A stretch of DNA of 64,000 bases from an uncultured Candidatus Saccharibacteria bacterium (GCA_964384035.1 CAYLIB010000001.1:135636-199635), one strand, 5' to 3'. Shown: positions 22,749 to 63,432, numbered from the stretch's first letter. The notes: generated by a model from the letters alone, not told the origin. Numbers and translations are program-made.

Positions 22749-22777
22749 TTGACAAAAATAATCAAACCTGCTAATAT
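22749..22777 (+). promoter_or_regulatory. Sigma70-type promoter of TrmB-like gene 22786
   Basis: TTGACA (22749-54), 17-nt spacer, TAATAT (22772-77). ATG at 22786 with no obvious RBS, so the mRNA is possibly leaderless. Confidence 0.5.
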
Positions 22778-22785
22778 GTAACCAT

Positions 22786-23658
22786 ATGGAACCCCAAAAC
22801 TCACAAATAAATAACCAGGATCAGCCCATTCCACACTCAGGTCCAAAACAAGAAGAGGGGCAAAATAGAACAAAAAAAGGTGTAGCTTCTAAAGCAAACT
22901 ACACGCAAGTTCTTATGCAAGCAGGTTTAAATGGTTCTCAGGCCCTTATTTACGAAACCTTACTAAAAACTGGCCCCTTAAAAGCCAGTAGTTTAGCCAC
23001 AAGAACCCCATTCAAACGTCAACTTACTTATAAGCTCTTAGAAGAACTAGTAGAAATAGGTCTGGTAGTTAAGCAGGAGCAAAAAGGGAAAGTAGCCATT
23101 TTCGAACCAGCGCATCCCCTAAAGTTAAAAGACTTTATAGAAAAACAACAGGAAAAAGCCAAAGCTGCCGAATTAGCCGTAAGTGGCATGATGGAAAAAC
23201 TAACCCTAGACTACAATTCAGTATTTGGTCGTCCCGGTGTTAAGTTCTACGAAGGAAAAGAGGGGATTATAAAAATCTACGAAACCTTATTAGAAAACGG
23301 AAAAAATATAGACAGTATAGAAGACAAAGGCGAAATGGCTAGTTTTATACCAGAATATTCCAGGCAATACCCAAAGCTAAGAGTAAAAAGAAATATTTTC
23401 AATAGAGTTATCGCTCCGTCAGATAATCCTATAAACGAATCCAGCAAAGTGCTCATGAGAGAAACCAGATCCATCCCCACAGAATCATTCCCGTTTCGCA
23501 TGGACATAAAAATTGCTGGTCAGCTAGTTAGTCTAATCACATTTCATAAAGATAACCCCGTAGGTATTCTTATAGACAACCCAGAAATAGCCGACAACTT
23601 TAAAATCCTATTCGATTTAATTTGGAGATCATCAGAAAAAAATAAACCCGCTTTATAA
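22786..23658 (+). CDS. TrmB-family winged-HTH transcriptional regulator paralogue (copy 1)
   Basis: N-terminal TrmB-like HTH: GLNGSQALIYETLLKTGPLKASSLATRTPFKRQLTYKLLEELVEIGLV. C-terminal domain is closest to copy 52486..53250 (shared PFRMDIKI...ILIDN.EIADN..ILF). Confidence 0.7.
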   Translation: MEPQNSQINNQDQPIPHSGPKQEEGQNRTKKGVASKANYTQVLMQAGLNGSQALIYETLLKTGPLKASSLATRTPFKRQLTYKLLEELVEIGLVVKQEQKGKVAIFEPAHPLKLKDFIEKQQEKAKAAELAVSGMMEKLTLDYNSVFGRPGVKFYEGKEGIIKIYETLLENGKNIDSIEDKGEMASFIPEYSRQYPKLRVKRNIFNRVIAPSDNPINESSKVLMRETRSIPTESFPFRMDIKIAGQLVSLITFHKDNPVGILIDNPEIADNFKILFDLIWRSSEKNKPAL

Positions 23659-23675
23659 GCGAGTTTATTTTATAA
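23640..23675. terminator. Bidirectional terminator hairpin between convergent genes 22786 and 23670
   Basis: Stem aaataaacccgctt / aagcgagtttattt with flanking T/A runs. Confidence 0.5.
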
Positions 23676-26600
23676 AACTTCTATATGGCAACCCTTCTTC
23701 TTATACTTATTCCACAGAGTCTGGCTACTACCTTGTTTAGTAATAATCATTGAGAGAGGAACAGGTCTGTCTTGTATAGGGTCTTCACCAGATATTGGTG
23801 GACCGAATATTATCAGTACCTCTGCATCAGGATGATGTCCTTTAAAAGTATGAAGTTCTTCATAGCGGTACCTGTATCCATCATTATCTCGGAAACTGTC
23901 ATCAAGTGCTATTCCCCCCACTTCTAATCGATCATATAAATCATCGAGGAAATGAATATATTCTGCACCCCGTTTGTAAACTGTCGACCTAACAGCTAGC
24001 TCTATCGAAATCTGATTCTTTTGTATCTTCGATATTTCGGAAATATCTCCTAGCATAACATTGGGAGGGAATGCATCTAGGTGCTCATAAAAGTTTTCGT
24101 TAGCCTTTAAGAACTCTAAGGGGTTTTCTTGTAAAGCTGACAGTGCAATTTCCAGGCCTCGCGGTCTTATTTTTTTAGTGTATTCAACTTCGTTTGCAGA
24201 GATATGTACGCTGGGTCCTCCGGGGACAGCGGGTAATCCATCTAACTTCTCTGTTAGTGTAGGCCAAATAGCTTTCAAATTATTGATATTTTTATTTATA
24301 CCCGAGTAGAAATCTGTATCATAGCGCACTCCCATCTCCGTTGTCCCTGTCTTAAGGCTCAGAATTCTGTAAAGATAATCGGTAATCCGCAAACGTTCAG
24401 AGGTGTCCATTTTAGTTCCAGTACGTTCTTCCAGTTTTTCAAAATCTACAATTCTTTCAAGAACAGGTTGAAGTGAAAAGTAAACATTGTCCGCAAGTCC
24501 AAATTCCATATACCCCCGAGATAACCCAGTACCAAAACGATCTTTCATACTTTGCCCGCTTCCCGGCCCTATCTCTAGTAAGATAGGCTTAGGAAGTTCG
24601 GGATTCCTTTTAGATTTGAATTCTTCAAGTAGTCCATTTAGATCAACACCAAACCGCTCTTCGTAACTCCTAAGATCTCTATCCACACTCCAATGAAACT
24701 CAGGAACTATCTTGAGCTTTCCCTCTTGTTGCAATACTTCAAGTAATATACTTTTTGAATCACTCGTGCCCATACTTTCAAGTAATAGTTCTTGCTCTCT
24801 AGAGAAGTCACGAAGATCAACAACACCCTTCTTATTAAGTAGTTCCGCTATGTGAGAAAAATCAGATCGAAGTACCGCATCGGAAGGAACTTCCTTTTGT
24901 AGGTCGTCAGCAAGTTTTTGTATGATTTCAGTCCTAGACAATTCCGTTCCGGATTCCTTGAGTCGTCTTTTGCAGTCCATTAGGTAGTATTTACCCCTTC
25001 GTAAAAAAGATTGCAAAAGTGACTCTTCCGAAAGCGAAATATTAGGGTATAATTCATGCAACCTCGTTAGGGCATTAGCGATTCTCACCTGAATTGTTTC
25101 TGTGTAAGTACGGTAAGAGCCAAATAGAAGCTTAGTATCTTCCTCAGAAGTGCACAGATCTGCTAGCTCAAGTATAGTATGTCCATACTCCGTATCTTCA
25201 GATGCAACTAAAAATGACCTAAGTATATCCTCTTTTGCCTCAGGATGATTACTTAGCGTATATTTTAGTTTATCCGCCGTAGTCTTATCGCCTTCGTCAG
25301 CGAGAAATCTAAGTAAGTGAAGCTGTGTACGCAGTGGTAATTCGGAAATGCTTATGCCATAGCGAGAATTAATAGACTCCGTAATATCAGGTGAGTGTAA
25401 ATGTTTAAAAAGAAGTGGTAGATTCCTTTGAGGTAACCCATATGGGTTGTAATCAGGATCTCTTTGCAAATTTTCGTAAGGTACAAAATGAGCATCTATA
25501 GGGGTGTAATCAATATGCGACTCTAATTTTTTCGCGAACTCATGAATGTCTTCTACAAGCTCATTTTTATGTTGTTTAATATATCCCCATTCCGAAATAT
25601 AGGTACGGACCGCGGTTGTTCTTTTTGTATCTACTTCAATGCTTTTTTGTAAATCCGTAAGTTTATTTTTATATACACGCGCATTTCTATCGAAAGCAGC
25701 CAAAACAGCATTATATGAAAGCACAAGCCTTCTCCCAGCTTTAGTTAGAGCGTGTGCTTTACTACTATTTATATTTTCATCTAAATCGAGAAATCGTTTT
25801 GCATTTAAAATGCCGATGCAGTCGACCGCTATATTAAAACATTCTTCCAGACTGTTTTTTTCTTTATATCGCGAATACTCTTGCCATAGTATAGAAAGCC
25901 GTTGAATTCCGGGCTCTCTATTTTCAGAAAGAATGCTAGGCATAGTTGCTTCAAACTTTTGTAAAAATGCATCAGTCGCACCTTCATTAGTATCACCCAT
26001 TTCTTTATTGAGTCTTTCGTCCTCATCTCGTAAACTTTGGTTGAATTTTACCAGTACTTCTTGAGATGTGAGTAATTTCTGTATCCTTTCACCCAGTGCT
26101 GGAGATATCTCTCTCCACAAAGAATGTCCACTCCTTTCTACAAGCCCTATTTCAACCGCCTTATGACCTAATCGGTTTTCTATATATTCACTGTGTACAA
26201 AAAGCTCTCGCGGATGAGAAAAATTTTCAGAATTTAATTGCAGAACCGTATTAATTTCACGCTTAGAAAGCCCCTCTGTTTTTGGAAGCCTACTTGTGTC
26301 TATATGAGTAATATATTTTGGTAACCTCGAATGGTCGGTAATGGCCACCGCATCACTGGCAACCTTTAAAAAAGTATCACCTTTATATAAAGGTACATCT
26401 GGTTCCAGTTGGCGACTAAGATTCCAAGATGCTAGACGCTCAGCCTCTGTAACGCTAGCGGATAGTCTTGCTCTAGAACGTTGGGATTCATAAGTTACTA
26501 TACCGAAGCGAGGGTCATTGATCTCTTGAGATATTATTTTTAAAGCACCTCGAGATTTAGTTTCCAACAACTCTGTACGTGCATTTATCTGAATTTCGGT

Positions 26601-27263
26601 AATAAGATTTTGAATTGACTCCACAGAGCGCATAGAGTTTCCGTAGCCCAGGCCTCTAATATTTGCCGCGACTGCGACTAACTGGTCTAGGCTATCTAAC
26701 TGTTCTTCTATCGGGGCATGTGCAATAAACTTCTTAATGATTTCAGTATCACCATCATCCAGTCTTTCAATCTCCATAGTAAAAGATCTACCAAAGATAC
26801 CTTGCAATTCCTGGTTGCGACTAGCTCTAAGTGATAAAAAGAAAATATCCGAAGGGTGGAGACTTGAGACAATAGAGTTCGAGTCACTAAATAATGATTC
26901 ATGTATCGAACTAAAAGTAGTCTGAACCTTTGATCTATCAGATTCACGCCTTGAGTAATCCTCCATCGTATCTATTAAATCTTCACAAAAGAGTTTTATG
27001 AGTTTAGTGATATCAGTATTTACACCACCTATTTTTCTAAAATAGTCTACAATAACATCTCTGGGTATATTGATATTTTGGTTCTCTGACGAATTGACCA
27101 CCTTATCAAAAAGTCCATTAGCAATAATATGAATTTCCTTTCGTATCGAGGGGTCATCTAGATCTCTCATTTTTTTATCATCTCGAGCTTCTCCAGTAAG
27201 ATTCTGGTTGTTTTCAGGATTAGCAATTTCACTCAGAAATTTTGTGTCAAAATTTTCATGCAT
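23670..27263 (-). CDS. Giant partner protein (1197 aa), helical with a C-terminal Rossmann/SAM-methyltransferase-like domain; paralogue of 49449..52463
   Basis: Shared blocks with the 1004-aa protein: RFGVD...LLEIGPGSG (vs LLELGPGSG), AFPPNVMLGDIS (vs AFPEGVIIGDFS), VLIIFGPPISGED (vs FLIVTGPGFEGKE). Arranged tail-to-tail with TrmB copy 1. Confidence 0.65.
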   Translation of the reverse strand: MHENFDTKFLSEIANPENNQNLTGEARDDKKMRDLDDPSIRKEIHIIANGLFDKVVNSSENQNINIPRDVIVDYFRKIGGVNTDITKLIKLFCEDLIDTMEDYSRRESDRSKVQTTFSSIHESLFSDSNSIVSSLHPSDIFFLSLRASRNQELQGIFGRSFTMEIERLDDGDTEIIKKFIAHAPIEEQLDSLDQLVAVAANIRGLGYGNSMRSVESIQNLITEIQINARTELLETKSRGALKIISQEINDPRFGIVTYESQRSRARLSASVTEAERLASWNLSRQLEPDVPLYKGDTFLKVASDAVAITDHSRLPKYITHIDTSRLPKTEGLSKREINTVLQLNSENFSHPRELFVHSEYIENRLGHKAVEIGLVERSGHSLWREISPALGERIQKLLTSQEVLVKFNQSLRDEDERLNKEMGDTNEGATDAFLQKFEATMPSILSENREPGIQRLSILWQEYSRYKEKNSLEECFNIAVDCIGILNAKRFLDLDENINSSKAHALTKAGRRLVLSYNAVLAAFDRNARVYKNKLTDLQKSIEVDTKRTTAVRTYISEWGYIKQHKNELVEDIHEFAKKLESHIDYTPIDAHFVPYENLQRDPDYNPYGLPQRNLPLLFKHLHSPDITESINSRYGISISELPLRTQLHLLRFLADEGDKTTADKLKYTLSNHPEAKEDILRSFLVASEDTEYGHTILELADLCTSEEDTKLLFGSYRTYTETIQVRIANALTRLHELYPNISLSEESLLQSFLRRGKYYLMDCKRRLKESGTELSRTEIIQKLADDLQKEVPSDAVLRSDFSHIAELLNKKGVVDLRDFSREQELLLESMGTSDSKSILLEVLQQEGKLKIVPEFHWSVDRDLRSYEERFGVDLNGLLEEFKSKRNPELPKPILLEIGPGSGQSMKDRFGTGLSRGYMEFGLADNVYFSLQPVLERIVDFEKLEERTGTKMDTSERLRITDYLYRILSLKTGTTEMGVRYDTDFYSGINKNINNLKAIWPTLTEKLDGLPAVPGGPSVHISANEVEYTKKIRPRGLEIALSALQENPLEFLKANENFYEHLDAFPPNVMLGDISEISKIQKNQISIELAVRSTVYKRGAEYIHFLDDLYDRLEVGGIALDDSFRDNDGYRYRYEELHTFKGHHPDAEVLIIFGPPISGEDPIQDRPVPLSMIITKQGSSQTLWNKYKKKGCHIEVL

Positions 27264-27344
27264 ATCCTATATTGTAACAGTAAGTACAACATAAATAACA
27301 CAAACTTGATAGATATAAAGCTCTTCTAAAGCTATAATACCCTT

Positions 27345-30137: not shown

Positions 30138-30145
30138 ATAAAAAA

Positions 30146-31356: not shown

Positions 31357-31531
31357 AAGAACCTCCTATTAAGTTTTAGTTTATGCGAACGGGTTGTTTG
31401 TTTTTGAAATATAATTATGTCATAATTAGCTAGAATTATTAACAATATTAGATAGTAATTTTAAATAAAAGCTCAAATATAGGATATTTTTAATACTAAT
31501 TAGCATAAATTTGTCAGAAATAATAACAAAA

Positions 31532-32275
31532 ATGATAGATTCTAAATCACTTCTCGTTGCAGGATTAGATGAAAAATCCGCACAAATATATCTCGCTAGT
31601 CTAAGTTCTGGTGTGTCTTCAGTTCAACAGCTTGCTGAAAAAACAGGTTTAAAAAGACCCACAGTCTATATGTATATTCAGCAAATGCTAAAAGAAGGCT
31701 TTCTAGAAAAAGTCCCCATTGGTAAGAAGGACTACTACCAAGCAATAGACCCAGAAGTTGTAAAACAGAAAGTAGACGAGGCTCACGCCCAAATGCAAAC
31801 CATATTCCCAGAGCTATTACAGATGCAAAATAAAACTGCGGGCAAACCCGGGGTTAAAGTACTCGTTGGTAAAAAGGGAATGGAGCAAATATACAAAGAA
31901 ATAGCCCAAGCAGATTCTATTCGTTTCTGGACCGACCTCTCCCAGTTTGAAAGCACCTTCAAAAATAGTTTCAACTACCTAAGCGAAACCATAAAAACTA
32001 AACAGATACGAACCAAAGAAATAATCGCCGACAACCCCAAAAGCAAAGCCAGCTCAAAACGTTACGCAGCAAACGCCGGTAAATTTTACTCTTCCCGCAT
32101 TGCCACAAAAGAAGGTATAACCAACGACAGTGCAATATATGGAAACGTCGTAGCCCTTTTCCGCATCCACGATTTCAACCTCTTCGTAGTCAGAATAGAA
32201 GACCTCACCATAGCTACCAGTATGAAAGCCCTCTTCGAAATGGCCTGGCAATCCGCCACGCCCTTCATTGGTTAA
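31532..32275 (+). CDS. TrmB-family winged-HTH transcriptional regulator paralogue (copy 2)
   Basis: N-terminus LLVAGLDEKSAQIYLASLSSGVSSVQQLAEKTGLKRPTVYMYIQQMLKEGFL. ATG at 31532 preferred over the track's TTG at 31511. C-terminus ALFEMAWQSA resembles other copies. Confidence 0.6.
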   Translation: MIDSKSLLVAGLDEKSAQIYLASLSSGVSSVQQLAEKTGLKRPTVYMYIQQMLKEGFLEKVPIGKKDYYQAIDPEVVKQKVDEAHAQMQTIFPELLQMQNKTAGKPGVKVLVGKKGMEQIYKEIAQADSIRFWTDLSQFESTFKNSFNYLSETIKTKQIRTKEIIADNPKSKASSKRYAANAGKFYSSRIATKEGITNDSAIYGNVVALFRIHDFNLFVVRIEDLTIATSMKALFEMAWQSATPFIG

Positions 32276-32297: not shown

Positions 32298-32984
32298 TCA
32301 CTGTAATTTGGGGTTTCCCTTAATTTCCATCTCAGTCTGTATGCCGGAAAACAACTTTGCTTCTTTTTCCGAAAAGTAGTCGTTAAACTGTTCCTCAAAA
32401 AGCCCTGCCTGCGAAGGCTTTTTATTTTTGAGAAGCAATTCATACTGAACGATGAAATACATCCCAACCCAATACAACTCTAACTCTTTCGGTTTGTTTT
32501 CAAGGTAGTACTGTAAGAACCGATTACGGGCCAAGCGTTTGAGCCTATCAAGGCCATCTGTATCTTGGCTCAATCCCTTGCTTTCCAGTCTCGCAAGGAA
32601 AACAGTCGCAAGGAATTCTACGGTTTCATCCTTATCCTCAGACACCAATATCTTTACCAGTTTGCTGCGACACTCCGGGATGTTCTTTTTGTAGTATGCG
32701 AGTAGTGCCTGCAGAAACCAAATCCGGGTTTCAAGCCTGCCTTCTTCCACGTATTTGGTAGTTAGTTCTTCGATCTCGGCCAGCAGCGACTTGTCCTGCG
32801 CTCCCTGAAGGTCGTAGCAAATAAACAAATCCACCACACAGTTGAAAGAGGCAAACAAACTCCCGCCGACCAGCATTTCATCCCGATAACCCTTTTTCAG
32901 AAATCCTTGAGCTTCATCAAAATTTCCTCGAAGCATGGATTTCAGCGCCTTGGGTCTAAGTTCACTAGCTTGCTCTCTGGGCAT
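32298..32984 (-). CDS. Hypothetical helical (TPR-like) protein; tail-to-tail partner of TrmB copy 2
   Basis: 228-aa E/K/L-rich ORF convergent with 31532. Confidence 0.45.
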   Translation of the reverse strand: MPREQASELRPKALKSMLRGNFDEAQGFLKKGYRDEMLVGGSLFASFNCVVDLFICYDLQGAQDKSLLAEIEELTTKYVEEGRLETRIWFLQALLAYYKKNIPECRSKLVKILVSEDKDETVEFLATVFLARLESKGLSQDTDGLDRLKRLARNRFLQYYLENKPKELELYWVGMYFIVQYELLLKNKKPSQAGLFEEQFNDYFSEKEAKLFSGIQTEMEIKGNPKLQ

Positions 32985-53466: not shown

Positions 53467-53738
53467 GAGTTTTAAACAAATTCTAAAACCAAGTGAGTTT
53501 AGAGAGAGCTCAGTAAGTAAATGGTTTGCCCAGGTTTTCTCTATATATAAGAAATACTGGGCAAGCCATTTTGTTTTAACGCATGGAAGCAAGCGCAGGG
53601 ATTCATTCAAACAAAGCCCGCCACCTTCCTTCCAGCCGCTAAACCAAAACCAATCACTCCCAACGGCACGCGCCCGCGGGAAAAGCCAGAACCTTGGCCA
53701 GCCTGGAAACGGTTCGGCCAAAACCATAAGGAGAAAAA

Positions 53739-54338
53739 ATGAATAAAGACATCGCTTCTATCGAGTTAGATTTTATCGGCACGGTGGAAAAAGTGGCCCT
53801 CAACATTTCGAATACGCTTTCTTTACTTGTGGGGCTGAGTCCCTGGATCAAAAAAGAGAACGTCAATCGCAATGACGGTCCACAGTATTTTTTCCGAAAT
53901 TTACTTCAAGTTGATCTGCATACCATGGTCGTGGTTGCCGACCAGATGCAAGAGTTCCTCGACCCGGAACGCGAGGGAGAAAACAACCTGGAATGGCATA
54001 TCGGCGTAGAGTTCGGTACTGGCAGTGAATTCTACCAGAATCGGAAAATTACGGTCGGTAAGGGGATTAAAATAAAAATTGAAGACCAGACGTTACGTCT
54101 GAGTCTTAAGCCGTCGATAAGCGCCGGAGGCTGCGCAGCCAAGTTGATTCTAGAGTTTCCAGAAGGTCGCGTTACCAGAGAGTTTATCGATGCAATACTC
54201 TGGCAATCTCTTATAGATGTGGGAATTCGAAACGGATTCCAATCATACACTGGGTCTACCTGCGCAACCTGGGGGCCGACGGCCCCTTACTGTGCTGTCG
54301 AGGTACATGAGGTAAAGTGTTACCTCGAACGCGAGTGA
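53739..54338 (+). CDS. Hypothetical protein (high GC); first gene of island 2
   Basis: RBS aaggag. 199 aa. Confidence 0.5.
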   Translation: MNKDIASIELDFIGTVEKVALNISNTLSLLVGLSPWIKKENVNRNDGPQYFFRNLLQVDLHTMVVVADQMQEFLDPEREGENNLEWHIGVEFGTGSEFYQNRKITVGKGIKIKIEDQTLRLSLKPSISAGGCAAKLILEFPEGRVTREFIDAILWQSLIDVGIRNGFQSYTGSTCATWGPTAPYCAVEVHEVKCYLERE

Positions 54339-54715
54339 TATTCCCGACGAAAGAAAGTCCGCCTCAACTTTCTTTCGTCACCTTTTTTAGAACCATCACT
54401 CACAAAGTGGTGTTTCGAAATCAGGTAATTACTAAAGAGGTTTGCATCTTTTCTATTTGCCCTCGTTCTGCGAAGCGAGAGGGGAAACCGGTCTTTCATC
54501 CTTAAGGATGAAGAAAATATTTTCCCTCACCCGCCTCGCAGAACCCTCCACCATGTATTCCTATGTTTTCTAATGTCATTCCGGGCGACTGAAAGGAGAT
54601 CCGGAATCCGTGAGATTAAAAGACTTAGTCGTCCCACCCCACACGAGTGGACACAGGACAAAAGAGCCGCAGAATACCGGCTATGGAGGAATGAAGCGGG
54701 GCAGAAGGAAAAGTA

Positions 54716-55060
54716 ATGAATCAGAGATATTTCAACACTACCCTCGGCCTCTCCATGCTCCCCGACGGCGGAGCAGAGATCAAAACCCTCACCGACGACG
54801 AGGCGAAAGCCTGGTTGGTGGCCGACTTCACCAACGCCGCCAACCCGGCCCATGGCAACACCTTGCAAGCCCTCACCCAAAAACTCGGCGTAGACCTTAC
54901 TCTCGCGGAAGGCACCAAAGCCCCACGTGTGTATCTCGAGCACGGCGACCAGTGCCTCGTCGCTGAAGTCTCGAAAATCCCCCGGGAAACACGAGAGTTC
55001 ACCGATGAGGAGATAGGTGTCGCGACTTTCAGATTTCGATTGGTCACGGTAAGTAGTTAG
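54716..55060 (+). CDS. Hypothetical protein (high GC)
   Basis: 114-aa ORF in island 2. Confidence 0.4.
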   Translation: MNQRYFNTTLGLSMLPDGGAEIKTLTDDEAKAWLVADFTNAANPAHGNTLQALTQKLGVDLTLAEGTKAPRVYLEHGDQCLVAEVSKIPRETREFTDEEIGVATFRFRLVTVSS

Positions 55061-55087
55061 TAGTTAGCTGTTTTCCAAAGGAGGCAA

Positions 55088-55411
55088 ATGAAAGTTTCAA
55101 AAGCGGTGGTTTCTTACTTACTCCGGAGGGCGGAGTATGAATTAGGTTCAGAATTCAGGGAACCGGAAGAGTGGCGTGAGGATGAAATCACGTCAGAAGG
55201 ATTAGAACTTCACTTCGGTTTCCATTTTGGTTCTAACTCATCGGACTGGTGCAGCACGCCAGTCCAAGTTCGTCCTTCTCGCGAAGGCGAGAATCTTCTG
55301 GAGTATAAACAGAAGATAGTAGGAAAGATAGCGGAGGCTATCGCCGAGTTAAATCGGCACATAGACACGCATCTGTCTACATACCCGCATGAACAGAAGG
55401 ACAATGAGTAA
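55088..55411 (+). CDS. Hypothetical protein (high GC)
   Basis: 107-aa ORF with RBS aaggagg. Confidence 0.4.
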   Translation: MKVSKAVVSYLLRRAEYELGSEFREPEEWREDEITSEGLELHFGFHFGSNSSDWCSTPVQVRPSREGENLLEYKQKIVGKIAEAIAELNRHIDTHLSTYPHEQKDNE

Positions 55412-55541
55412 GTTTCGAACGGTGCAGGTTTTTAGATAGGAGAAAAGTTTCCTTTCCTGCACCGAACCTTTTTCGGGGGCGTGATCCAAAGCGGATCGTG
55501 CTTGACCCGAAATTGGCAACTACATTTTAAAGGAGGCAAGA

Positions 55542-56051
55542 ATGAGATTGATAGTAAACTGCGAGATTAGTTTCCGGGGCATTCTATGGAATGCGCCATG
55601 GTACCTAACATTTTTACTCTCAGAAGGGGATAAGAGAAATTATTTGCTATATGACTTGCTTCTCCAAACGGAGAGGGTAGTCATCAGTCAAACAGGGTAT
55701 GACGACGAAATTGGTCGAGGGTATGAACTTGATTTTCTTTCCAAGGAAGGTAATCTTCTGCAAAAAGAATACGGCGCTGCACACAGCGTTAGTCTTGAGG
55801 ATGCGGGGTGCCGAAACCTTTTCTTTTATGAAAACCCAGTGTTTTCTGAAGAGTTCTTGGTAAACCTTGCAAAGCAAGGGAATCAAGTTGCTGAGCATAT
55901 GCTAAGGCGCAGATCGATTCCTCCCGAACTCTGGGAGAAATATCAGTATGTGTTTCCCAGTCCGGAGCTGCTCCCTGCATATACCTGGGAGTATCCAATT
56001 TCAGAGGAGCAAAAGCAAGAAATTAAATTGCTTTTAGAAAACAAGCAATGA
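55542..56051 (+). CDS. Hypothetical protein
   Basis: 169-aa ORF with RBS aaaggagg. Confidence 0.4.
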   Translation: MRLIVNCEISFRGILWNAPWYLTFLLSEGDKRNYLLYDLLLQTERVVISQTGYDDEIGRGYELDFLSKEGNLLQKEYGAAHSVSLEDAGCRNLFFYENPVFSEEFLVNLAKQGNQVAEHMLRRRSIPPELWEKYQYVFPSPELLPAYTWEYPISEEQKQEIKLLLENKQ

Positions 56052-56299
56052 ATTGCTTATAGAAGGAAAACTATAAACCCGCCTGTGATTGCTTGGGTGT
56101 TACATAAGCAGTGCGTAAGTGGGGGACGCGTATAACTCCCACAGCGTGCTAGTTGCATGTCTACTTTAAAAACTCGTCATGTGAACACTGTTCACATGCC
56201 TTCCTCCCAGGTAACAAATATGGTTCTCTCTCCACATTTGTTGCCGGAGAGGAGGGTAATAAAACCCAAACACCAAAGCTTTCTTTCAAAGGAGATCAT

Positions 56300-58714
56300 A
56301 TGCCTATTATCGACATCACCGCCCAAGTCCGAGCCCGTCAAGAACAAGAACGGTTAAGCCAGCAGGCCGAGCAGGAAGCCAAAGAAGCCCCTGCCAAAGC
56401 CTGGTGGGGAAAAAACGGCACCTTCATTGAGGCGCATGTAACAACAAGATTGAAGCAACTAACTATCGGATCCACTCCAACTATAGAGGTGGATGGGCAC
56501 GAGGTAACATTCGTCACCCAGACTCTTCTGGGCGAACTACTAAACCAACCCTCAACCGAGGTTGCTCCCCAGATACAGTATTCCTGGGGGTGCGAGGTCT
56601 ACGTGGAAGGGTTCGAAACCCGGTTTCATTCCCACGTTAAGCACGAAGAAGTGCGACAAGGCTGGGGTTTAGTTAAACCCGGTGAACTGCGTCGGTGGGA
56701 CGAGAAAAATTTTACGGTAAGTGTTGAGTTTCAAATCCTTAATACGCATTCCGCAAAATTTACTCTAACTTGTCCGGTTGTCCCACAAGCCCCTGAGCTT
56801 AGGGGAGACCACGTCTTTCAATCGCTTATAGTTCAGCTCCCGAACGGTGAGGTCCTAGCTCAAGAGAACAATCTCACCAGACATGCGTTCAAGGGGCTAT
56901 GGGGTGACTTCGATGCAGAAAAATTAAAACTTCAAGGCATCGACCAAGAAGTTAAAAAGCTCGAAGCAATAATCAATCTAGAAACGCCAAAATGTGAGCT
57001 CTCTATGGTCGGAGTCACTCGCTACGAAAGTAGCGGCGCCCTGGTTGTAAAAGGTGATGTTTGGCACACGGGCCCCCCGGCCCAAAGTGTCCCATATCGC
57101 GTACAGGTAACAGCGTTGCTTTTCAATTTTTCCACTCCAACTTTTTCAAAGTCCGAAAAGGGAATTGGGGTGGACGATCTCAAGGTCGAAGTGAATCAAA
57201 AATTCGACCGTGAACAAATTAGAAAAAAAATTGAAAGCTATGTTACCGGGAAAATTCAAAACGCGGGCTTCCAAGTTAACGAGTACTCGCAAAAACTTAT
57301 TGACTCTTTGGTAGAAGCCTGCATAAAGGCAATGCCAAGGGTTGTAATTGAAAGCCAAGTTCTCGTGGTTGAAGAAGACCCATTCCAGCACAACCAAACC
57401 CGGGCAGAACAAGCCTACCCCGGCATGGGTATCTGCCCAAATGGACACGACGGGAAACTCCGAAAAGTTCTCCTCCCCGAAGTTGCAGAGTTTCTGGGAG
57501 TAAAAGGCGAACTTTTGGAAAATATTCCCGTGCAGTGGGGGTTGGGGCGAGTGGGCATGGGTTCACTCTTGAGTTTAGAAAACTTCACCGACCAACGTTT
57601 GGTTTTCGCAAGCCCTTTGCACCCAATAGGCGCTCGCTTTAAAGCGCAGGTAAAAACCCAAAACGGCAAAGCCAGCGCAACCACAGTTTTTAGTGCTAAT
57701 GTCATGCGCGACGTCACTCGTTACACCACAGGTGGCCCGGTAACCGAACCGGTCATTGTGGGAACCAAAAACGCCGAACATACATTCGCGGTGAGTCTCC
57801 CCGCAGGTTTCAAAGGCGACCTCAATGGTGAATATGAAATCGAGGTCTGCGACACTCACCAAAGACGCGGGACAGAATGTGTCTACATGGTCATTCTGCC
57901 AGAAGTGGCAGCAGACCAAGATGACTATTCAGTGACCGAAAGCTTTGTGGTTGGTATCGAAACCAGTGGTAGCCGCAGCTTCGAGCAAGTGTGGGTAATT
58001 TCCCCCAAAGGGAAATTTATTCCGCACTCTCGCGCCGAAGCAAGGGGAGGTAGGCGAGGCAGACCAGCAGACCGCACTCGCTACCACTGGGACTCCGCTC
58101 CTGCCGGGTGTCTCGTACTCACCCGGAGGCAGTCCAATTACGGCTACACCCACTCAGTGGAGTTCGTGGTCGTAAGGAAACCAGGGATTATCTCAAAAGA
58201 GCAACTGAGTGCAGTCGAAGTAATTCTCCAGAATACAACCAACTGGAAATACTTCGTCGGCTCCCAAGTTCGGTGGGATCTCTCCAAAGTGGGAAGCGTC
58301 ACCTTCACCACCGAACGGGAAGCAGGTCGTGATGATCTGGAAGATTTTATCCGCCAGATCAGCACCGCCCCGGTAAACCCGTTCGACTACGAGATCAAAC
58401 GGGAAGCAATACCTCCGGATTCCGAATTGAGGTCTCCGGCCGGTGTCCGCTTCACCGTCTATCCACTAAAAGCAGGTAACCAAATCCCACCCACAGAACT
58501 TTCTGCGCCAGTGGGTGAGGCTGAAACCGAGGGCGTCAAATTCGAACTCATGCCTTCCTCTCCTGGCTGGCTTCGCTGCAGCTGCGGGCGAGCCGAAATG
58601 TATTGGAAGAAGGCCGAGTGGAAAGCGCTCGAGCCCGAATCCAAACACACCGTAACCTGTAAGGGTTGCAGGGGAGTGGGCGAAATTCAAAAACCAAAGG
58701 AGGTAAAAAACTAA
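56300..58714 (+). CDS. 804-aa protein with a C-terminal zinc-ribbon EWKAL module (high GC); paralogue by C-terminus of 13301..15718
   Basis: RBS aaaggag plus ATG at 56300; the track's upstream extension from 56153 is rejected. C-terminus GWLRCSCGRAEMYWKKAEWKALEPESKHTVTCKGCRGVG matches that of the island-1 805-aa protein. Confidence 0.6.
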   Translation: MPIIDITAQVRARQEQERLSQQAEQEAKEAPAKAWWGKNGTFIEAHVTTRLKQLTIGSTPTIEVDGHEVTFVTQTLLGELLNQPSTEVAPQIQYSWGCEVYVEGFETRFHSHVKHEEVRQGWGLVKPGELRRWDEKNFTVSVEFQILNTHSAKFTLTCPVVPQAPELRGDHVFQSLIVQLPNGEVLAQENNLTRHAFKGLWGDFDAEKLKLQGIDQEVKKLEAIINLETPKCELSMVGVTRYESSGALVVKGDVWHTGPPAQSVPYRVQVTALLFNFSTPTFSKSEKGIGVDDLKVEVNQKFDREQIRKKIESYVTGKIQNAGFQVNEYSQKLIDSLVEACIKAMPRVVIESQVLVVEEDPFQHNQTRAEQAYPGMGICPNGHDGKLRKVLLPEVAEFLGVKGELLENIPVQWGLGRVGMGSLLSLENFTDQRLVFASPLHPIGARFKAQVKTQNGKASATTVFSANVMRDVTRYTTGGPVTEPVIVGTKNAEHTFAVSLPAGFKGDLNGEYEIEVCDTHQRRGTECVYMVILPEVAADQDDYSVTESFVVGIETSGSRSFEQVWVISPKGKFIPHSRAEARGGRRGRPADRTRYHWDSAPAGCLVLTRRQSNYGYTHSVEFVVVRKPGIISKEQLSAVEVILQNTTNWKYFVGSQVRWDLSKVGSVTFTTEREAGRDDLEDFIRQISTAPVNPFDYEIKREAIPPDSELRSPAGVRFTVYPLKAGNQIPPTELSAPVGEAETEGVKFELMPSSPGWLRCSCGRAEMYWKKAEWKALEPESKHTVTCKGCRGVGEIQKPKEVKN

Positions 58715-58836
58715 CACGAGGGTCACCCTCATCACACACCGGGGACGATAAAACATACGTCCCCCTCTTTTTCCAGCCTGTGACCACCATCGTCGTCGGC
58801 ATGGAAATTGAGAAAAATTTTATAAGGAGAAAAATT

Positions 58837-59514
58837 ATGGAGCTAACTAATCAGGAGTTATTCTGGGTAGCGGTAGCAATGTTACCGCAGGGTTCAAAAA
58901 GAAGAGTTAGGCTAGAGCGTATGCAAGAAGAATCAGAACTGTGCCTGGTATGTGGGTACATCGACCAAGGTGACCCAGTTCACAAAGTACACGGCGAGAA
59001 AGTTTTGGAATACCTACGAGAATTAGAAGCCGGTCTAAAAGTATGTTGCGCCGCATACCCCAACTGTCACAACGACCCTGGCGGATATGTGCTAATAGGC
59101 GGTCCTGAGGAGATTAGGTTTTGCTCCGACTTCTGTCGGTTGAGTCTAATGAATCCAAAAAAATACAAAAAACTCCTCGCCCAAACCCCTAAGGAAGGAG
59201 AGGTGGAAAACTTCGAAAAGAAGTTAAAGAAAATTCCTCTCAAAGCAATAAAAAAAGCCGTGGGTGAAACCGAACAAAGAGAGGGGATAGACGTCCCCAC
59301 TAGTATTACGGAAAAAGACAGAGAATCTGTTATAAAATATTTACTAGTAGTAAGGTCTGTTGAATCCGGTGCATGGGATTGGATAAACCATCCCGATAGA
59401 CTTTACGCCAACATTACCAAAATCGAAGGCTTAACAATTTACGGTCACGTTTTCTACGATGACCAAGAGGACTTCGAGGAGGTCGAAATAGACCTCACTT
59501 TTTCAGGGGATTAA
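58837..59514 (+). CDS. Cys-rich protein (high GC); last gene of island 2
   Basis: RBS aaggag plus ATG at 58837. Cysteine clusters CLVCGY, CCAAYPNCHND and FCSDFC. Terminator gggatt / aatccc plus T-run at about 59508-59535. Confidence 0.5.
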   Translation: MELTNQELFWVAVAMLPQGSKRRVRLERMQEESELCLVCGYIDQGDPVHKVHGEKVLEYLRELEAGLKVCCAAYPNCHNDPGGYVLIGGPEEIRFCSDFCRLSLMNPKKYKKLLAQTPKEGEVENFEKKLKKIPLKAIKKAVGETEQREGIDVPTSITEKDRESVIKYLLVVRSVESGAWDWINHPDRLYANITKIEGLTIYGHVFYDDQEDFEEVEIDLTFSGD

Positions 59515-59577
59515 AAAAATCCCTTGCTTTTTTTATTCCCCCGGATTTCGCTATACTATCTCTATAATAAAAAACCT

Positions 59578-60744
59578 ATGCCCGAAACCCATCACGCAGA
59601 ATATGATTTTCCAGAATTTCGCATCCCTTCTGAGACAGAATTCATAGAATACCAAGAAGGTAAAGAAGCGGAATATATAAACTCGATACTAGATATTAAA
59701 ACAGCAGAAAAAATACCAGAACGCGCCAAGGTCCCACTGGTAAGGTTTCTACAAAAATATGCAGAATACCCAACAGGTGCAACAGCACAGCTCCGTTTCG
59801 GAATACAAAGGCTGCCCGAAAAAGCTCGGATAGAGCTATTAAGTGGGTTCGCTGCAGCAGATATAAGTGAAGACTACGCCCTAACACTTGTTTCTCTTGC
59901 GCGCAACGTAAGAGACACTCGTGCAGTATCCGAATTAATGTCTACGTTTAACGCAATTCTAGACAACGCCGAAAAAGTAGACGACTTTTTGGGAGAATCA
60001 TATAAGTCGGAAGGTGTAGACAAAGAAGCAATGAGCACAGCCGCCAAGCAAAGCCTTGTACGTCGTGCAGCACGTGTCCTGAGTAACCAAGGGATAGGTA
60101 TAGGCCTTAGTTCTATAACAATTGAGCAAGCACGCAAAGAGCTTACACATATTAACGCAGACGCGCTGCTAACCACACAAACCATTCGAGCAGCACTTGA
60201 AAACGATTCAGAGTTTACATTAGAAAAGCTTAAAACGCTCACCATAGAATCCGGCTACGGAAACAATATACCACCAGAAAATATTCAAGCTCTCATAGAA
60301 ATAAACACAGAAAATTGGACAACCAAAGAAGGGAAAGAAAAAACTTCAAGTGAGTATATCGAAGAATTGAATCGTAAATTTGAAGAGCTAAAAAATAACC
60401 CCAATGCAAAGCTTGCGGTATTAAAAGACAAAGAAGAGATAGTCGCCGGAGTCTATTATATAGACGAGCGCGGCGAAGACGGAGAGATAAAGAGTATATA
60501 TGCCGGCGGGTTTAACGTACGCAAAAGCTATCAGAAAGAAAAAGTGGGTGAGTTATTTTTGAGCCAAACGCTTGCCGACGAACGAAAAAGAAACTTAAAA
60601 ATAAGAAGCATAACCAGTCCCAACCAACCTATGCTTCCTAAGTATATAAAAATGGGTTTTAAAGAAGGACGACATTTTACTTTAGAAACTGGCGAACCCA
60701 GAGTAGAGCTAGAAATTCCACCCGATGCATCACGCCCCGCCTAA
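59578..60744 (+). CDS. Partner protein (about 388 aa) with a GNAT-like C-terminal domain; short paralogue of 40218..42227
   Basis: C-terminus IVAGVYYIDERGEDGEIKSIYAGGFNVRKSYQKEKVGELF is homologous to that of the 669-aa protein. ATG at 59578 preferred; the track start at 59524 lies inside the upstream terminator. Confidence 0.5.
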   Translation: MPETHHAEYDFPEFRIPSETEFIEYQEGKEAEYINSILDIKTAEKIPERAKVPLVRFLQKYAEYPTGATAQLRFGIQRLPEKARIELLSGFAAADISEDYALTLVSLARNVRDTRAVSELMSTFNAILDNAEKVDDFLGESYKSEGVDKEAMSTAAKQSLVRRAARVLSNQGIGIGLSSITIEQARKELTHINADALLTTQTIRAALENDSEFTLEKLKTLTIESGYGNNIPPENIQALIEINTENWTTKEGKEKTSSEYIEELNRKFEELKNNPNAKLAVLKDKEEIVAGVYYIDERGEDGEIKSIYAGGFNVRKSYQKEKVGELFLSQTLADERKRNLKIRSITSPNQPMLPKYIKMGFKEGRHFTLETGEPRVELEIPPDASRPA

Positions 60745-60756
60745 CGCGGGGTTTTA
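60733..60756. terminator. Bidirectional terminator between 59578 and 60754
   Basis: Stem gccccgc / gcggggt with loop ctaa (containing the stop codon), then tttt. Confidence 0.5.
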
Positions 60757-61539
60757 TAATGCCCGCGCCTTCTCCCATGTAAACTCGTACAACTGTCTAT
60801 GCAATTCAGCTATATGAGCGTCTTCAATAATAACTCCAATATATTTGTCCTTCTCAAACGTCATATAGCTAATCTTATTGTCGTAAATCTGAAGCATGCT
60901 CTTAAACTGCATGGGGGAGTGGACACGGTCTACTAAGCGAATGTCTGTAATATCACGGTGGTAGTCTGCTAAATACGCACGGTTCTCCAAAGAATCATTC
61001 ACCAAATTTCGTTTCTTTATTTTAAGTCGTCTACGGACCTTAACGTATTCATCGTTAAGGTCTTTTAAATGCGCCTGAATAACCGACATATCCAAATAGG
61101 CAAGTATCTCACCTTTGGCAGTTAAGTTATCGAATGCCACCGTACGAATTCCTTCCAGTCCTTCAAAAAATTGCACCGAAGGTTTCCCAACCGACAAGTT
61201 GTACTCAGAAGAAAGTGTCCCCATAACAGCAGCCAGCGACTCTTTAGCGGTTTGTGCTTCTTTTTCGCGTCGTGCAATAAGCTCCTCTAAGTGTCTCGGG
61301 TGATTCGCCTCAAACAAAGCCACCTTCCCCGGTTCATCTTTCTTTACAACAAGCTCAAGTTCTAATAATTGATCCAGAATCCGATATGCGATAACCCGTT
61401 CCATCTGTACTGCACTAGCCAATTTACTAGCAGTACTCGCACCACTCTTAAGAAGCGATTCATACACCAAAGCCTGCTGGTCAGTTAAGCCGGCCAACGT
61501 TAAATGTTCAAAGTATGTATGTGAGTGGGGGATGTTCAT
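60754..61539 (-). CDS. TrmB-family winged-HTH transcriptional regulator paralogue (copy 7)
   Basis: MNIPHSHTYFEHLTLAGLTDQQALVYESLLKSGASTASKLA... Close paralogue of copy 4. Shares the MNIP start with copy 6; the track's upstream ATG at 61572 is the alternative. Confidence 0.7.
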   Translation of the reverse strand: MNIPHSHTYFEHLTLAGLTDQQALVYESLLKSGASTASKLASAVQMERVIAYRILDQLLELELVVKKDEPGKVALFEANHPRHLEELIARREKEAQTAKESLAAVMGTLSSEYNLSVGKPSVQFFEGLEGIRTVAFDNLTAKGEILAYLDMSVIQAHLKDLNDEYVKVRRRLKIKKRNLVNDSLENRAYLADYHRDITDIRLVDRVHSPMQFKSMLQIYDNKISYMTFEKDKYIGVIIEDAHIAELHRQLYEFTWEKARAL

Positions 61540-61766
61540 ATGTTGCGTTAGGGTATGTAAGAAATCACACATACCATAGATTCCTGTTACCCGAATAAAT
61601 GAAAACCATTCATTCCGAGCCTAAGAAACTCTTTTCTATAAACTATTATATCACAACAAGATAATTTTGTAAAACAAAAAGTTACAAAAACATATAAATA
61701 AAATAAGCAAAATGTGCTTATTATATTAAATAATATTACAAATACAAATATTTTGTATCAATATTA

Positions 61767-61795
61767 TTGACATTTATATAAATTTATGGCATACT
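61767..61795 (+). promoter_or_regulatory. Conserved cassette promoter (copy D)
   Basis: TTGACA, 17 nt, tgg-CATACT. Identical to 43143-43171 apart from one spacer base. Confidence 0.55.
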
Positions 61796-61899
61796 ATCAC
61801 TTAAACCAAAACGCAAAAAAACCGAACTCCAAAGCAAGCGCTAAGGTATTCATATCTAAAAACTACAACGCGGCCTCAGCCGCAAAATAAGGAGAGAAA

Positions 61900-63432
61900 A
61901 TGACTAATCTTAAAAAAGCAGAATCAATTATTTGGTCCGATGGTAACAAAGTTTCGCGAGTAATCGAATCCCAAGTGGGAACTTTGATAATGTACGGAGG
62001 ACGATGGGGGATCGTCCACAAGAGCAGTCTGAATGGTCATGTGATCATGAGTGACGCATTTCTTACATCATGCTCGTACCACAACGTTGATATCACCACG
62101 CCACTCCCCACTGAACTAACGGTATTGACTTATAGTGGTAAAGCCACGGGTCACGGACGGCTTTCGGCAGGGAGTCCGGTGCTCGAAGGTACCACGATCA
62201 TTCCGGCTGGTACCGAGATTGCCAAGGCGCTAACTACCAAAGGCGAGCACCCGTGTTGGGTATCCTCAGTTCTGGAAGTGGGAGAGGGAAAACTAGTTAG
62301 TGTCCTGGATATCGGTAACCATGGCGGCTGGTTCGGAATGAGATTCTCTGGGGAGAGCTCAAGTGCTCCTAATCTCCAGCTTTCATCCGAAGATGATCAG
62401 GTGACTCTGGTCAACTTCCATTTCGACAGCGACGACCGGTACATGGCCCGACGGGTAGTGCTCAACAAAGGCTGGGTCCGCGAAGCCGAGCCAGAATTTC
62501 ATGAAGTGGTTGAAGGAGCGCCCACCGAGGTTCTGGTGGAGTGGCTGGTTACAGGGGACCGCAAGCACCCCTTCTCCGACCATTTGAAAAAACTCCGCGT
62601 AGCGCTTCATGAGTTCGAGTTGCGTCGTGAGCTCAGTGACGGCAAGCGCCGCCATTATAGTGATCAGGGTAGGTACGAATGGAAGACAGTGCAGGAAGCT
62701 GCCATCGCCTATCTAGGTAAAGATGTTCGAAAAGCATCGCAGATCCCAAGCGATGCAAAAATCGAACTCGAGACTCTCGTTCCAGCCGAGCTCTGGGCCC
62801 AGCGCGAAACCTTGGACACGATCGAAATTCCGGGACTCGGGCGCAAGCAGCTCGAGCACCCTAAAGACTACGGTGGACTTGGTTCGTCTGCCAGAGCCGA
62901 AGTCCGGCTCACGCGGGACGAGGCAAAGAAGGTCACGTCGTGGCCATTCCTCGACGTAGTTCTAATTGTGGACGGCACCGCGCCATTCACACATTGGTCC
63001 CACGTGATATACGATGGGATGTACACACCTAAGCAGCGCTGGTTCCACGCGTCAACCGAACTAGGGTTGATCCAGTATGGAGAATACAGTGTCGGATCGG
63101 AAGTCAAAACGATATCAATCGAAGGGAAAGGCATGAAGAAAGATGTTCCGACCGAAGCGATCTCCGTTGATCAACCGCTCACCGGACAGAATATAGATAT
63201 CTTTCACGCCGTCCTGAAATCAGGCGACCGTGCAGAAATCTATGGGGACTGCGGAGTCGGTCGCACGTTGGTCTTCGAGGAGCAGGGAGTCGCGCACGTC
63301 GTAATCCGGCGAGTGTCGGCCGGGTCAAAGACCCGGTACTACATCGCTACCGTGAGCAGTGATGGGGTTTTCGGCCCAGCTCCGGCTGGGATGGCAGTAA
63401 GCGACCAGGGGGTCGCATACTGGGAAGACTAA
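61900..63432 (+). CDS. Hypothetical protein (high GC); head-to-head cargo of TrmB copy 7
   Basis: RBS aaggagag. 510 aa. No recognisable motif. Confidence 0.5.
   Translation: MTNLKKAESIIWSDGNKVSRVIESQVGTLIMYGGRWGIVHKSSLNGHVIMSDAFLTSCSYHNVDITTPLPTELTVLTYSGKATGHGRLSAGSPVLEGTTIIPAGTEIAKALTTKGEHPCWVSSVLEVGEGKLVSVLDIGNHGGWFGMRFSGESSSAPNLQLSSEDDQVTLVNFHFDSDDRYMARRVVLNKGWVREAEPEFHEVVEGAPTEVLVEWLVTGDRKHPFSDHLKKLRVALHEFELRRELSDGKRRHYSDQGRYEWKTVQEAAIAYLGKDVRKASQIPSDAKIELETLVPAELWAQRETLDTIEIPGLGRKQLEHPKDYGGLGSSARAEVRLTRDEAKKVTSWPFLDVVLIVDGTAPFTHWSHVIYDGMYTPKQRWFHASTELGLIQYGEYSVGSEVKTISIEGKGMKKDVPTEAISVDQPLTGQNIDIFHAVLKSGDRAEIYGDCGVGRTLVFEEQGVAHVVIRRVSAGSKTRYYIATVSSDGVFGPAPAGMAVSDQGVAYWED

Follow-up and report, generated by a model that had tools for sequence, protein, structure and literature searches.

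We have analysed a stretch of 64,000 nucleotides from an uncultured Candidatus Saccharibacteria bacterium (GCA_964384035.1 CAYLIB010000001.1:135636-199635), here called the window, in which seven genes for TrmB-family winged helix-turn-helix (wHTH) proteins, R1 to R7, hold the same position relative to their neighbours: each R gene converges on one neighbour, its partner (P1 to P7), and diverges from the genes on its other side, which we call cargo. One R gene with its partner and cargo is referred to as a unit. The window is bacterial DNA with a GC content of about 40%, whose genes include those for TsaE, VanW, PilB, PolA and RecQ; a tRNA search of it gave none. Since JGI and Logan contigs from several independent samples match it at 100%, the window is not chimeric. 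An earlier note on this DNA, made from the sequence alone, had described seven TrmB-like paralogues in a fixed geometry and had proposed a profile search with Pfam TrmB (PF01978). In that search all seven passed the gathering cutoff of 25.6 bits, at 36.8-62.9 bits, and the proteins are paralogous over their full length. The geometry likewise holds for 7 of the 7 copies, one neighbour being convergent, with a spacing that ranges from a 4-bp overlap up to a 182-bp gap, and the other divergent and GC-richer: the first divergent genes have a GC of 0.47-0.62, with GC at third codon positions (GC3) up to 0.70, and the R genes and large partner genes a GC of 0.37-0.43. The chance of such a seven-fold pattern, counting orientation alone, is (1/4)^7, about 6e-5. 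The regulator genes, with protein lengths in amino acids (aa) and E-values for Pfam TrmB, are:

22786-23658, plus strand: R1, 290 aa, a TrmBL2-like wHTH protein (2e-10)
31511-32275, plus strand: R2, 254 aa, a divergent TrmB paralogue with 22-29% identity to the other R proteins (1.4e-11)
36201-36965, minus strand: R3, 254 aa, a divergent TrmB paralogue (2.6e-17)
42224-43033, minus strand: R4, 269 aa as listed (3e-10); the true start is probably the ATG at 43015, next to a -10 box ending at 43022
47510-48274, minus strand: R5, 254 aa (1.6e-11)
52486-53250, minus strand: R6, 254 aa (1.4e-11)
60754-61572, minus strand: R7, 272 aa (3.7e-9)

In full-length alignments R1 and R6 are 51% identical and R4 and R7 37.5%, with 21-35% for the remaining pairs. 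The 39 database relatives of R6 all belong to the Candidate Phyla Radiation (CPR, or Patescibacteria) or to unclassified metagenome-assembled genomes (MAGs). A profile built from 20 R relatives spans the TrmBL2 structures 5bpd/5box from end to end (positions 17-254 against residues 16-263, E 5e-9), and the R proteins show the TrmBL2 type of architecture, that is a wHTH, a long helix and a C-terminal alpha/beta domain without the sugar-binding subdomain. Pfam gave no match beyond the wHTH that would correspond to the sugar-binding effector domain of TrmB and TrmBL1, and alignments to these sugar-sensing proteins are limited to the first ~90-130 residues. Against the NCBIfam equivalog model for TrmBL2 (NF041141) the R proteins score 18-27 bits, with a cutoff of 530. 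On this profile evidence R is a TrmB-family member of TrmBL2 architecture and not a TrmBL2 orthologue. According to PMC3031468, TrmBL2 itself is a chromosomal protein that acts as a global repressor.

The convergent neighbours are:

23670-27263, minus strand: P1, 1197 aa, with a variable N-terminus, a helical mid domain (mid-domain hidden Markov model, HMM, E 5e-103) and a predicted divergent class I S-adenosylmethionine (SAM) methyltransferase-fold C-terminus with the motif LLEIGPGSG
32298-32984, minus strand: P2, neighbour of R2, 228 aa, not of the P family, with a cargo-like GC3 of 0.52
35470-36018, plus strand: P3, neighbour of R3, 182 aa, not of the P family, with an HExxH motif, a weak Peptidase_M57 match and cargo-like GC
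40218-42227, plus strand: P4, 669 aa, mid domain (HMM E 3.5e-20) and a probable GNAT-type C-terminus, on family-level evidence
45303-47483, plus strand: P5 position, 726 aa, backbone GC, without detectable relation to the P family
49449-52463, plus strand: P6, 1004 aa, mid domain and a predicted class I SAM-methyltransferase fold
59524-60744, plus strand: P7, 406 aa as listed (388 aa in the JGI gene call), mid domain (HMM E 8.7e-5) and a GNAT-like end

The earlier note had taken the partners for one related set and had proposed an all-against-all comparison. This view stands for P1, P4, P6 and P7, which form one family (the P family); it falls for P2, P3 and P5, which showed no similarity to the other partners, or to each other, in pairwise comparison and with the mid-domain HMM. 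P1 and P6 are 26% identical across their C-terminal 577 aa (E 3e-57), P4 and P6 27% across 404 aa, and an HMM of the P1/P6 mid domain recovers both P4 and P7. The proposed co-divergence of regulators and partners is borne out, as the groupings (R1, R6) with (P1, P6) and (R4, R7) with (P4, P7) are congruent. An exhaustive search of 1.84 billion proteins found 367 representatives related to P. Word-index homology searches, run with P6 or an alignment of five sequences, recovered P6 alone.

P1 and P6 gave no match to Pfam or NCBIfam, and P profiles none to PDB sequences. The structure predicted for the C-terminal 645 residues of P6 from a 98-sequence alignment (mean confidence score, pLDDT, 89.7) has an all-helical domain and, after it, one of Rossmann type; on this model the P1/P6 family has the Rossmann-like seven-strand fold of class I SAM methyltransferases. 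Within motif I (E-x-G-P-G-S-G) residues E337, G339, G341 and G343 show little or no variation among the 98 sequences, and the predicted second strand carries an acidic D/E ahead of F/I-A/G, as this class of enzymes requires. The folds nearest to this domain are small-molecule methyltransferases, including N-methyltransferases, and RNA methyltransferases. Neither P1 nor P6 belongs to a curated methyltransferase family; Methyltransf_11 picked up two of 16 relatives, with E 0.003, and DNA-methyltransferase motifs ((D/N/S)PP(Y/F), PCQ) or families were not found in P. By the structural model, then, P1 and P6 are proteins of a divergent class I SAM-methyltransferase fold outside the curated families. 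The description of P4 and P7 as GNAT-like, also made in the earlier note, is upheld in part: P7 matches Acetyltransf_10 at E 1.2e-4 with 22.5 bits, under the Pfam cutoff of 23.6, and searches of P4 with Pfam and with its C-terminus gave no direct GNAT match. Of 28 mid-only relatives of P, 14 match GNAT families (Acetyltransf_1/7/10, with E-values down to 7e-12) and one has a canonical methyltransferase; because they so often bear GNAT, the P family appears to combine the mid domain with either a methyl- or an acetyl-transferase, and P4 and P7 fit the second type at the level of the family. A C-terminal -AA is found in 27% of the methyltransferase-type and 36% of the GNAT-type P representatives (15 end in -LAA; homologues P0042-P0190, alignment A8) vs 0 of 39 R relatives. 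These tails resemble the ssrA/ClpXP type of C-terminal degron, and P is therefore probably short-lived. The partners in the window end without such a tail (P1 ...EVL, P4 ...ATA, P6 ...NEI, P7 ...RPA).

The R/P junctions of units 1, 4, 5, 6 and 7 each carry a hairpin flanked by A- and T-tracts, and on the other side of R a conserved element, TTGACA-17-(T/C)ATACT with TG, directed away from R, lies upstream of R1, R4, R5, R6 and R7. This near-consensus sigma-70 promoter stands 110-200 nt from the R start codon, and R's own promoter is closer to that start than the cargo-ward one. The upstream regions of R4 and R7 are 89.6% identical over 67 bp. The elements are:

22611-22675, minus strand: unit 1 cargo-ward element, TTGACA-17-TATACT from 22655 down to 22627, conserved in the regions upstream of R4, R6 and R7 as well
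22750-22778, plus strand: R1 own promoter, TTGACA-17-TAATAT, ending 7 nt ahead of the ATG
23636-23672: R1/P1 junction hairpin, AAACCCGCTT-TATA-AGCGAGTTT, with A-/T-tract flanks, a candidate bidirectional terminator
42209-42242: P4/R4 hairpin, a terminator-like 14-pair stem across the overlapping stop codons
43143-43171, plus strand: unit 4 cargo-ward promoter, TTGACA-17-CATACT, with TG
47484-47511: P5/R5 bidirectional terminator, a 12-pair stem, both strands
48375-48419, plus strand: unit 5 cargo-ward promoter, TTGACG-17-CATAAT
52462-52484: P6/R6 terminator hairpin with A-/T-tract flanks
53345-53317, minus strand: R6 own promoter
53438-53466, plus strand: unit 6 cargo-ward promoter, TTGACA-17-TATACT
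60734-60752: P7/R7 terminator hairpin
61767-61795, plus strand: unit 7 cargo-ward promoter, TTGACA-17-CATACT

A perfect inverted repeat at 48375-48399, TTTCGTCAA-N7-TTGACGAAA, overlaps the -35 of unit 5 and is, going by its position, the clearest operator candidate for any R. Further terminator-like hairpins separate the cargo from the next P gene at 45227, 49363 and 59504. Boxes resembling a -10 element lie 7-9 nt ahead of the ATG of P1, P4, P5, P6, P7, R1 and R5 (in the regions 27264-27344, 40182-40217, 45251-45302, 49387-49448, 59527-59577, 22773-22785 and 48275-48281), and this closeness to the ATG suggests leaderless mRNAs. Two simpler arrangements could be ruled out. P is not the last gene of the previous unit's operon, given the hairpins before it, its own -10 boxes and the retention of the R-P pair in genomes with a single unit; nor do R and P control each other by convergent transcription, since bidirectional terminator hairpins occupy every junction.

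Between the cargo-ward promoter and the cargo there can be a long leader. Two of these were mapped in the window:

21756-22626, minus strand: unit 1 leader, hairpin-rich, with AGAGAGAG at 22579 and 22389 and a palindrome of 30-nt arms plus T-tract at 22491-22550
53467-53738, plus strand: unit 6 leader, with AGAGAGAG at 53501

The unit 1 leader is 870 nt long and has no open reading frame (ORF) above 92 aa; its inverted repeats are abundant and its folding z-scores are -7.2 and -6.95 for the two strands. Because both strands fold equally well, this structure may also reflect DNA palindromes. The leaders of units 5 and 7 measure 46-104 nt, and those of other CPR loci 0.3-1.9 kb with few ORFs. 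In 16.8 kb of leader we counted 21 copies of a purine motif, GGAGAGAG, every one of them on the transcribed strand, vs 13 copies in 434 kb elsewhere (~42-fold enriched). Its form in the window is AGAGAGAG, three of whose four copies in the 64 kb are those at 22389 and 22579 (minus) and 53501 (plus). This motif often stands beside or within hairpins (leaders of L004-L022, minus strand, about 8800-9700). One clade (loci L016, L017, L019 and L022) has a leader with a GNRA-type hairpin and two terminator-like stems showing compensatory substitutions across four genomes. A covariance model of this block gave weak matches outside its own clade (L014, L015) and none in the window, and the Rfam 15 covariance models, at gathering score, found no family in the window or in seven loci. 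In the leader gap between R and cargo two loci carry a short ORF of the GIY-YIG, homing-endonuclease-like type (88 aa at L005 8629-8895; also L017 8647-8919), which may be a clue to island exchange.

The cargo of the seven units comprises:

12698-21755, minus strand: unit 1 cargo, GC 0.47-0.62, genes of 376, 321, 199, 689 (DEAH/RHA helicase), 805 and 134 aa
30658-31356, minus strand: R2 divergent gene, 232 aa, GC 0.47
37112-37984, plus strand: R3 divergent genes, 142 aa (GC 0.52) and 126 aa
43260-45172, plus strand: unit 4 cargo, an 89-aa membrane ORF with ribosome-binding site, a 225-aa DnaQ/RNase H-like protein (GC 0.50) and a 286-aa protein
48466-49095, plus strand: unit 5 cargo, 209 aa, GC 0.48, followed by terminator-like hairpins at 49107 and 49363
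53739-59514, plus strand: unit 6 cargo, GC up to 0.57, proteins of 199, 114, 107, 169, 853 and 225/282 aa
61900-63432, plus strand: unit 7 cargo, 510 aa, GC 0.54, no family match

Cargo of different units is non-homologous, with the exception of a Zn-ribbon-like end of ~100 aa shared by the 805-aa (13301-15718, minus) and 853-aa (56153-58714, plus) proteins, whose C-terminal Cys-rich motif GW(V/L)RC..C...EWKAL...VTC..C (phmmer 1.9e-7) was absent from the other loci examined. The earlier note's picture of units 1 and 6 as mirror images and of units 4 and 7 as direct paralogues thus applies to R, P and promoter, and of the cargo to this shared end alone. The 225-aa protein of unit 4 has 35% identity to the product of the gene that comes first in the L006 cargo. 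The unit 1 cargo other than the helicase had no match in Pfam, PADLOC or PHROG, and PDB sequence searches with the P4 C-terminus, P5 and cargo had none apart from the helicase. PADLOC-DB 2.0 found no system, with weak Cas3-like matches to the helicase and HTH-level ones to R6; PHROGs returned generic helicase and exonuclease matches alone, NCBIfam gave no system-level match, and no source held a name for the proteins looked up. Searches of R and cargo by tblastn against 50,697 phage records, and against IMG/VR, gave no match. The units have no integrase, transposase or repeat boundaries, and as to integron features neither an integrase domain nor a repeated attC-like inter-cassette element was seen in them. 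The GC-richest stretch (19327-20536, 0.56-0.62) has long ORFs on both strands, of which public gene calls pick a predicted minus-strand one of 316-321 aa.

The arrangement recurs outside the window. The triad order that the earlier note proposed to look for in related genomes was present at about 25 further CPR loci, with R/P convergence, a cargo-ward sigma-70 promoter, a long leader rich in hairpins and poor in ORFs, and GC-richer genes, and its reading of the fixed geometry as a functional module is strengthened by this recurrence in independent CPR genomes. A scan with one genome per species gave 21 loci (in MAGs labelled Kerfeld-, Kuenen-, Doudna-, Magasanik-, Peregrini-, Buchanan- and 'Saccharibacteria') and a metagenome scan 19 more; the same junctions were also found in a 904-kb contig and in many MAGs. 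Where the R relative was at least 37% identical and enough sequence was available, a convergent P-family gene directly followed R at at least 16 genome loci and at 14 of 14 metagenome loci, and distant R relatives (23-26% identity) stood without a convergent P gene. In the neighbourhoods of R6 relatives L004-L008, for example, the stop of a 255-aa TrmB gene overlaps that of a protein of 800-1000 aa without Pfam match, which is a P1/P6 homologue (E 1e-50 to 1e-80); in many genomes the stop codons of R and P overlap by 4 bp. The cargo-ward promoter was found at 11 of 13 loci with enough upstream sequence and at 8/14 metagenome loci, several of which lack upstream sequence. The GC of the divergent genes exceeds that of R/P by a mean of 10.6 points and was higher at 16 of 17 loci (Wilcoxon p=3e-5). 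The distance matrices of R and P are correlated (Mantel r=0.77, p=2e-4), as co-inheritance would lead one to expect, although species phylogeny could produce the same correlation. The 56 cargo ORFs taken from 13 loci included four VWA, three MoxR/AAA_5, three DEAD-type helicase and two Csx3 matches, and most ORFs had no match. A 1.6-Mb chromosome labelled Gammaproteobacteria (L028, 9965-14114) has three tandem co-directional distant R paralogues with no P-family neighbour; by their relationship to R, this is the same regulator family in another arrangement.

Comparison of close genomes indicates how the islands change. Three genomes are syntenic over FemAB-RuvA, island and R-P-UvrB-RpoD; in these R is 65-73%, UvrB 70-77% and P 44-48% identical, and the island genes between RuvA and R-P have 0 homologues among the three. 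A sister-strain MAG (L009) has an R1 that is 99% identical within flanks of 93-97% DNA identity, next to a partner allele only 27-35% identical. It is without the GC-rich segment 53739-58813, in the place of which it has another R and a 616-aa partner with a methyltransferase motif. In this second pair (L009 6101-8745) the R has 259 aa and 37% identity to R5, and the 616-aa protein that converges on it has the canonical motif VLDVGIGEA and no mid domain; by its motif the latter is a third kind of predicted transferase partner. An independent sample has the same layout with a 293-aa R1 variant and a convergent gene, the layout alone having been compared. On these comparisons the cargo behaves as acquired, fast-turnover DNA. 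A separate 1396-aa protein at 7245-11435 (plus), with an N-terminal membrane anchor, PA14 domains and three C-terminal repeat modules of ~95 aa, is probably a surface adhesin unrelated to the R-P finding.

The layout is real and widely conserved, and we regard this type of locus as specific to CPR; for its function we offer a hypothesis. Our preferred reading, to which we give a probability of about 0.45, is that a conserved pair of R and transferase P stands beside a hypervariable island of acquired genes and controls it, with R controlling the outward promoter and itself, the leader adding a further control and P tuning the whole. The R-P pair would be the vertically inherited anchor at the island edge. 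R would bind the common divergent promoter region and so set the expression of the adjacent island as well as its own, and the terminator-like hairpins of the leader would act as a second checkpoint. P, probably short-lived, would tune the switch by methylating or acetylating a common target, which could be R or some molecule related to the cargo. The cargo would be a fast-turnover pool of conflict- or defence-type genes together with functions that have no family match. That R regulates, and represses, the cargo we infer from its position and its family, because TrmBL2 is a repressor (PMC3031468). We likewise infer the substrate of P, its action together with R and the function of the cargo, and the role of P is the weakest step of the model. 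The exchange of methyltransferase for GNAT domains, the N-methyltransferase-like folds and the -AA tails hint at a common amine-type target and a short life for P.

Several findings weigh against this reading. Units 2, 3 and 5 are without a P-family partner. With terminators between R and P, neither co-transcription nor transcriptional interference can be what links them. Only in unit 5 does a clean inverted repeat cover the -35, and the model offers no cause for the consistent GC excess of the cargo. The view of the cargo as conflict genes rests on a minority of domains, most cargo being orphan, and 0 of 10 window proteins (five partners, four cargo proteins and R6) matched a known defence system in PADLOC. 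In the sister strain P has been swapped beside an unchanged R1, and a partner only 27-35% identical next to a 99% identical R1 argues against tight co-adaptation between the R and P proteins.

Five other readings deserve weighing. The least unlikely of them goes further than our own and makes R and P a chromatin protein and its 'writer': P, a methyl- or acetyl-transferase of short life targeted by its mid domain, would covalently modify R, or the leader nucleoprotein or RNA, and so switch the strongly promoted, GC-rich foreign island on or off. If this held, it would be a CPR-wide, so far unrecognised way to domesticate and deploy genes of foreign origin, probably related to conflict, in which the structured leader RNA with its GA motif would form a third layer of regulation.

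Next in probability, and doubtful, is a restriction-modification (RM)-like or other self/non-self defence, in which P would be a hypervariable nucleic-acid methyltransferase marking self, the cargo would supply helicase and nuclease effectors and R would be the controller (C) that times expression. In some C-protein systems methyltransferase and regulator are convergent. The methyltransferase fold of P with its intact SAM motif, the swapping of P alleles between near-identical strains, which is typical of specificity genes, and the DEAH helicase, DnaQ-like exonuclease, MoxR-VWA and Csx3 of the cargo all agree with such a role. However, P has no DNA-methyltransferase Pfam family or (D/N)PPY- or PCQ-type motif and its best structural matches are to small-molecule and RNA methyltransferases; the methyltransferase domain is interchangeable with GNAT, and marking of DNA by P makes no sense if a GNAT can take its place. 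PADLOC found no system, and there is no constant effector, the cargo being non-homologous between loci.

It is improbable that R and P have no functional link at all, R being an ordinary local regulator, P a neighbour kept by synteny in reduced genomes and the array a product of segmental duplication. Their separate promoters with a terminator in between, the unrelated convergent neighbours in units 2, 3 and 5 and the replacement of P while R1 stays 99% identical would be expected under this explanation, but it has to account for adjacency at about 25 loci from many CPR classes where the outer genes differ (UvrB, GATase, XerC-like integrase with tRNAs, PolA), for a pair that was co-duplicated at least twice in the window with matching subtypes, and for the 4-bp stop-codon overlap in many genomes.

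More improbable still, in our judgement, is that the long structured leader RNA is the main product, a protein-sequestering or regulatory RNA with repeated GGAGAGAG, the R-P pair being its control module and downstream genes being expressed by read-through only. ORF-poor leaders of 0.3-1.9 kb with folding z = -7, hairpins with compensatory changes, the two terminator-like stems kept in four genomes and the 42-fold enrichment of the motif on the transcribed strand only speak for an RNA, but no Rfam family was hit, the covariance model is weak outside its clade and finds nothing in the window, the leaders of units 5 and 7 are just 46-104 nt, and both strands fold equally well. Mobile-element or prophage remnants, or assembly or binning chimeras with GC-rich stretches from another organism, would explain the abrupt GC shift, the orphan cargo proteins and the GIY-YIG ORF in one leader, but are very improbable given the independent contigs that reproduce the window at 100%, the same junctions in the 904-kb contig and many MAGs, the syntenic chromosomal position of the locus, the lack of integrase, transposase and repeat boundaries in the units, and the lack of any match in the phage collection or IMG/VR.

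A literature search on TrmB with Patescibacteria or CPR gave no paper, and one on CPR genomic islands nothing relevant. The R-P locus is made of known folds, but we could not find a described counterpart of it as a system in the literature and databases searched, and none of the known systems of defence, RM, integron, toxin-antitoxin, phage or silencer type fits it; the earlier note had been aware of no established system of this architecture, and none turned up here either. CPR/Patescibacteria account for a large part of the diversity of bacteria, with genomes of ~1 Mb and many unnamed genes. Here a patch of hypothetical proteins becomes a defined, recurring locus in which a P family of about 370 representative clusters is always paired with a TrmBL2-like regulator, next to a conserved promoter and leader and a hotspot of strain-specific genes of foreign composition. 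The pair can serve as a search anchor for CPR accessory genes in metagenomes. If our reading of an anchored and regulated island is true, it would show where and how accessory functions, for instance defence or host interaction, are acquired, controlled and exchanged by minimal symbionts, and would provide a bacterial case of a switch made of a regulator and a modifying enzyme.

Among known systems, integrons resemble the locus in that a strong outward promoter adjoins a conserved gene and leads into variable genes that look promoter-less and have hairpins close by, but here there is no tyrosine-recombinase integrase and there are no attC-like repeats between cargo genes. The xenogeneic silencers H-NS, Lsr2, MvaT and Rok share the idea of a DNA-binding repressor that quiets acquired genes, as R would do; R is unrelated to them in sequence, and they recognise AT-rich DNA whereas the cargo here is GC-richer. 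Defence-island hotspots with dedicated regulators, among them those with BrxR/CapW WYL regulators and the core defence hotspots (PMC10250203), likewise combine conserved flanks, a strain-variable island and an edge regulator, and some MoxR-VWA, Csx3 and helicase cargo is common to both. The regulator is of another family, however, the tested window proteins match no defence system, the cargo is GC-richer than the host and not AT-richer, and the hotspots have no counterpart to the conserved transferase partner or the structured leader. C-protein RM systems share a small HTH regulator, a convergent methyltransferase-fold gene and hypervariable alleles, but P is without DNA-methyltransferase motifs or families, a GNAT can replace its methyltransferase, the loci lack a conserved endonuclease, and R has 250 aa and is of TrmB type while the C protein is an Xre-type protein of 80 aa. 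The TrmBL2 of Thermococcales is a repressor that coats DNA (PMC3031468, PMC4877046). Although R, known here from its sequence, is bacterial (CPR) and not archaeal, and is multi-copy and locus-bound where TrmBL2 is a single global chromatin protein, the two have in common the N-terminal TrmB winged helix, a length of ~255-265 aa and a profile alignment over the whole length of the protein (5bpd/5box; PMC3031468, PMC4877046).

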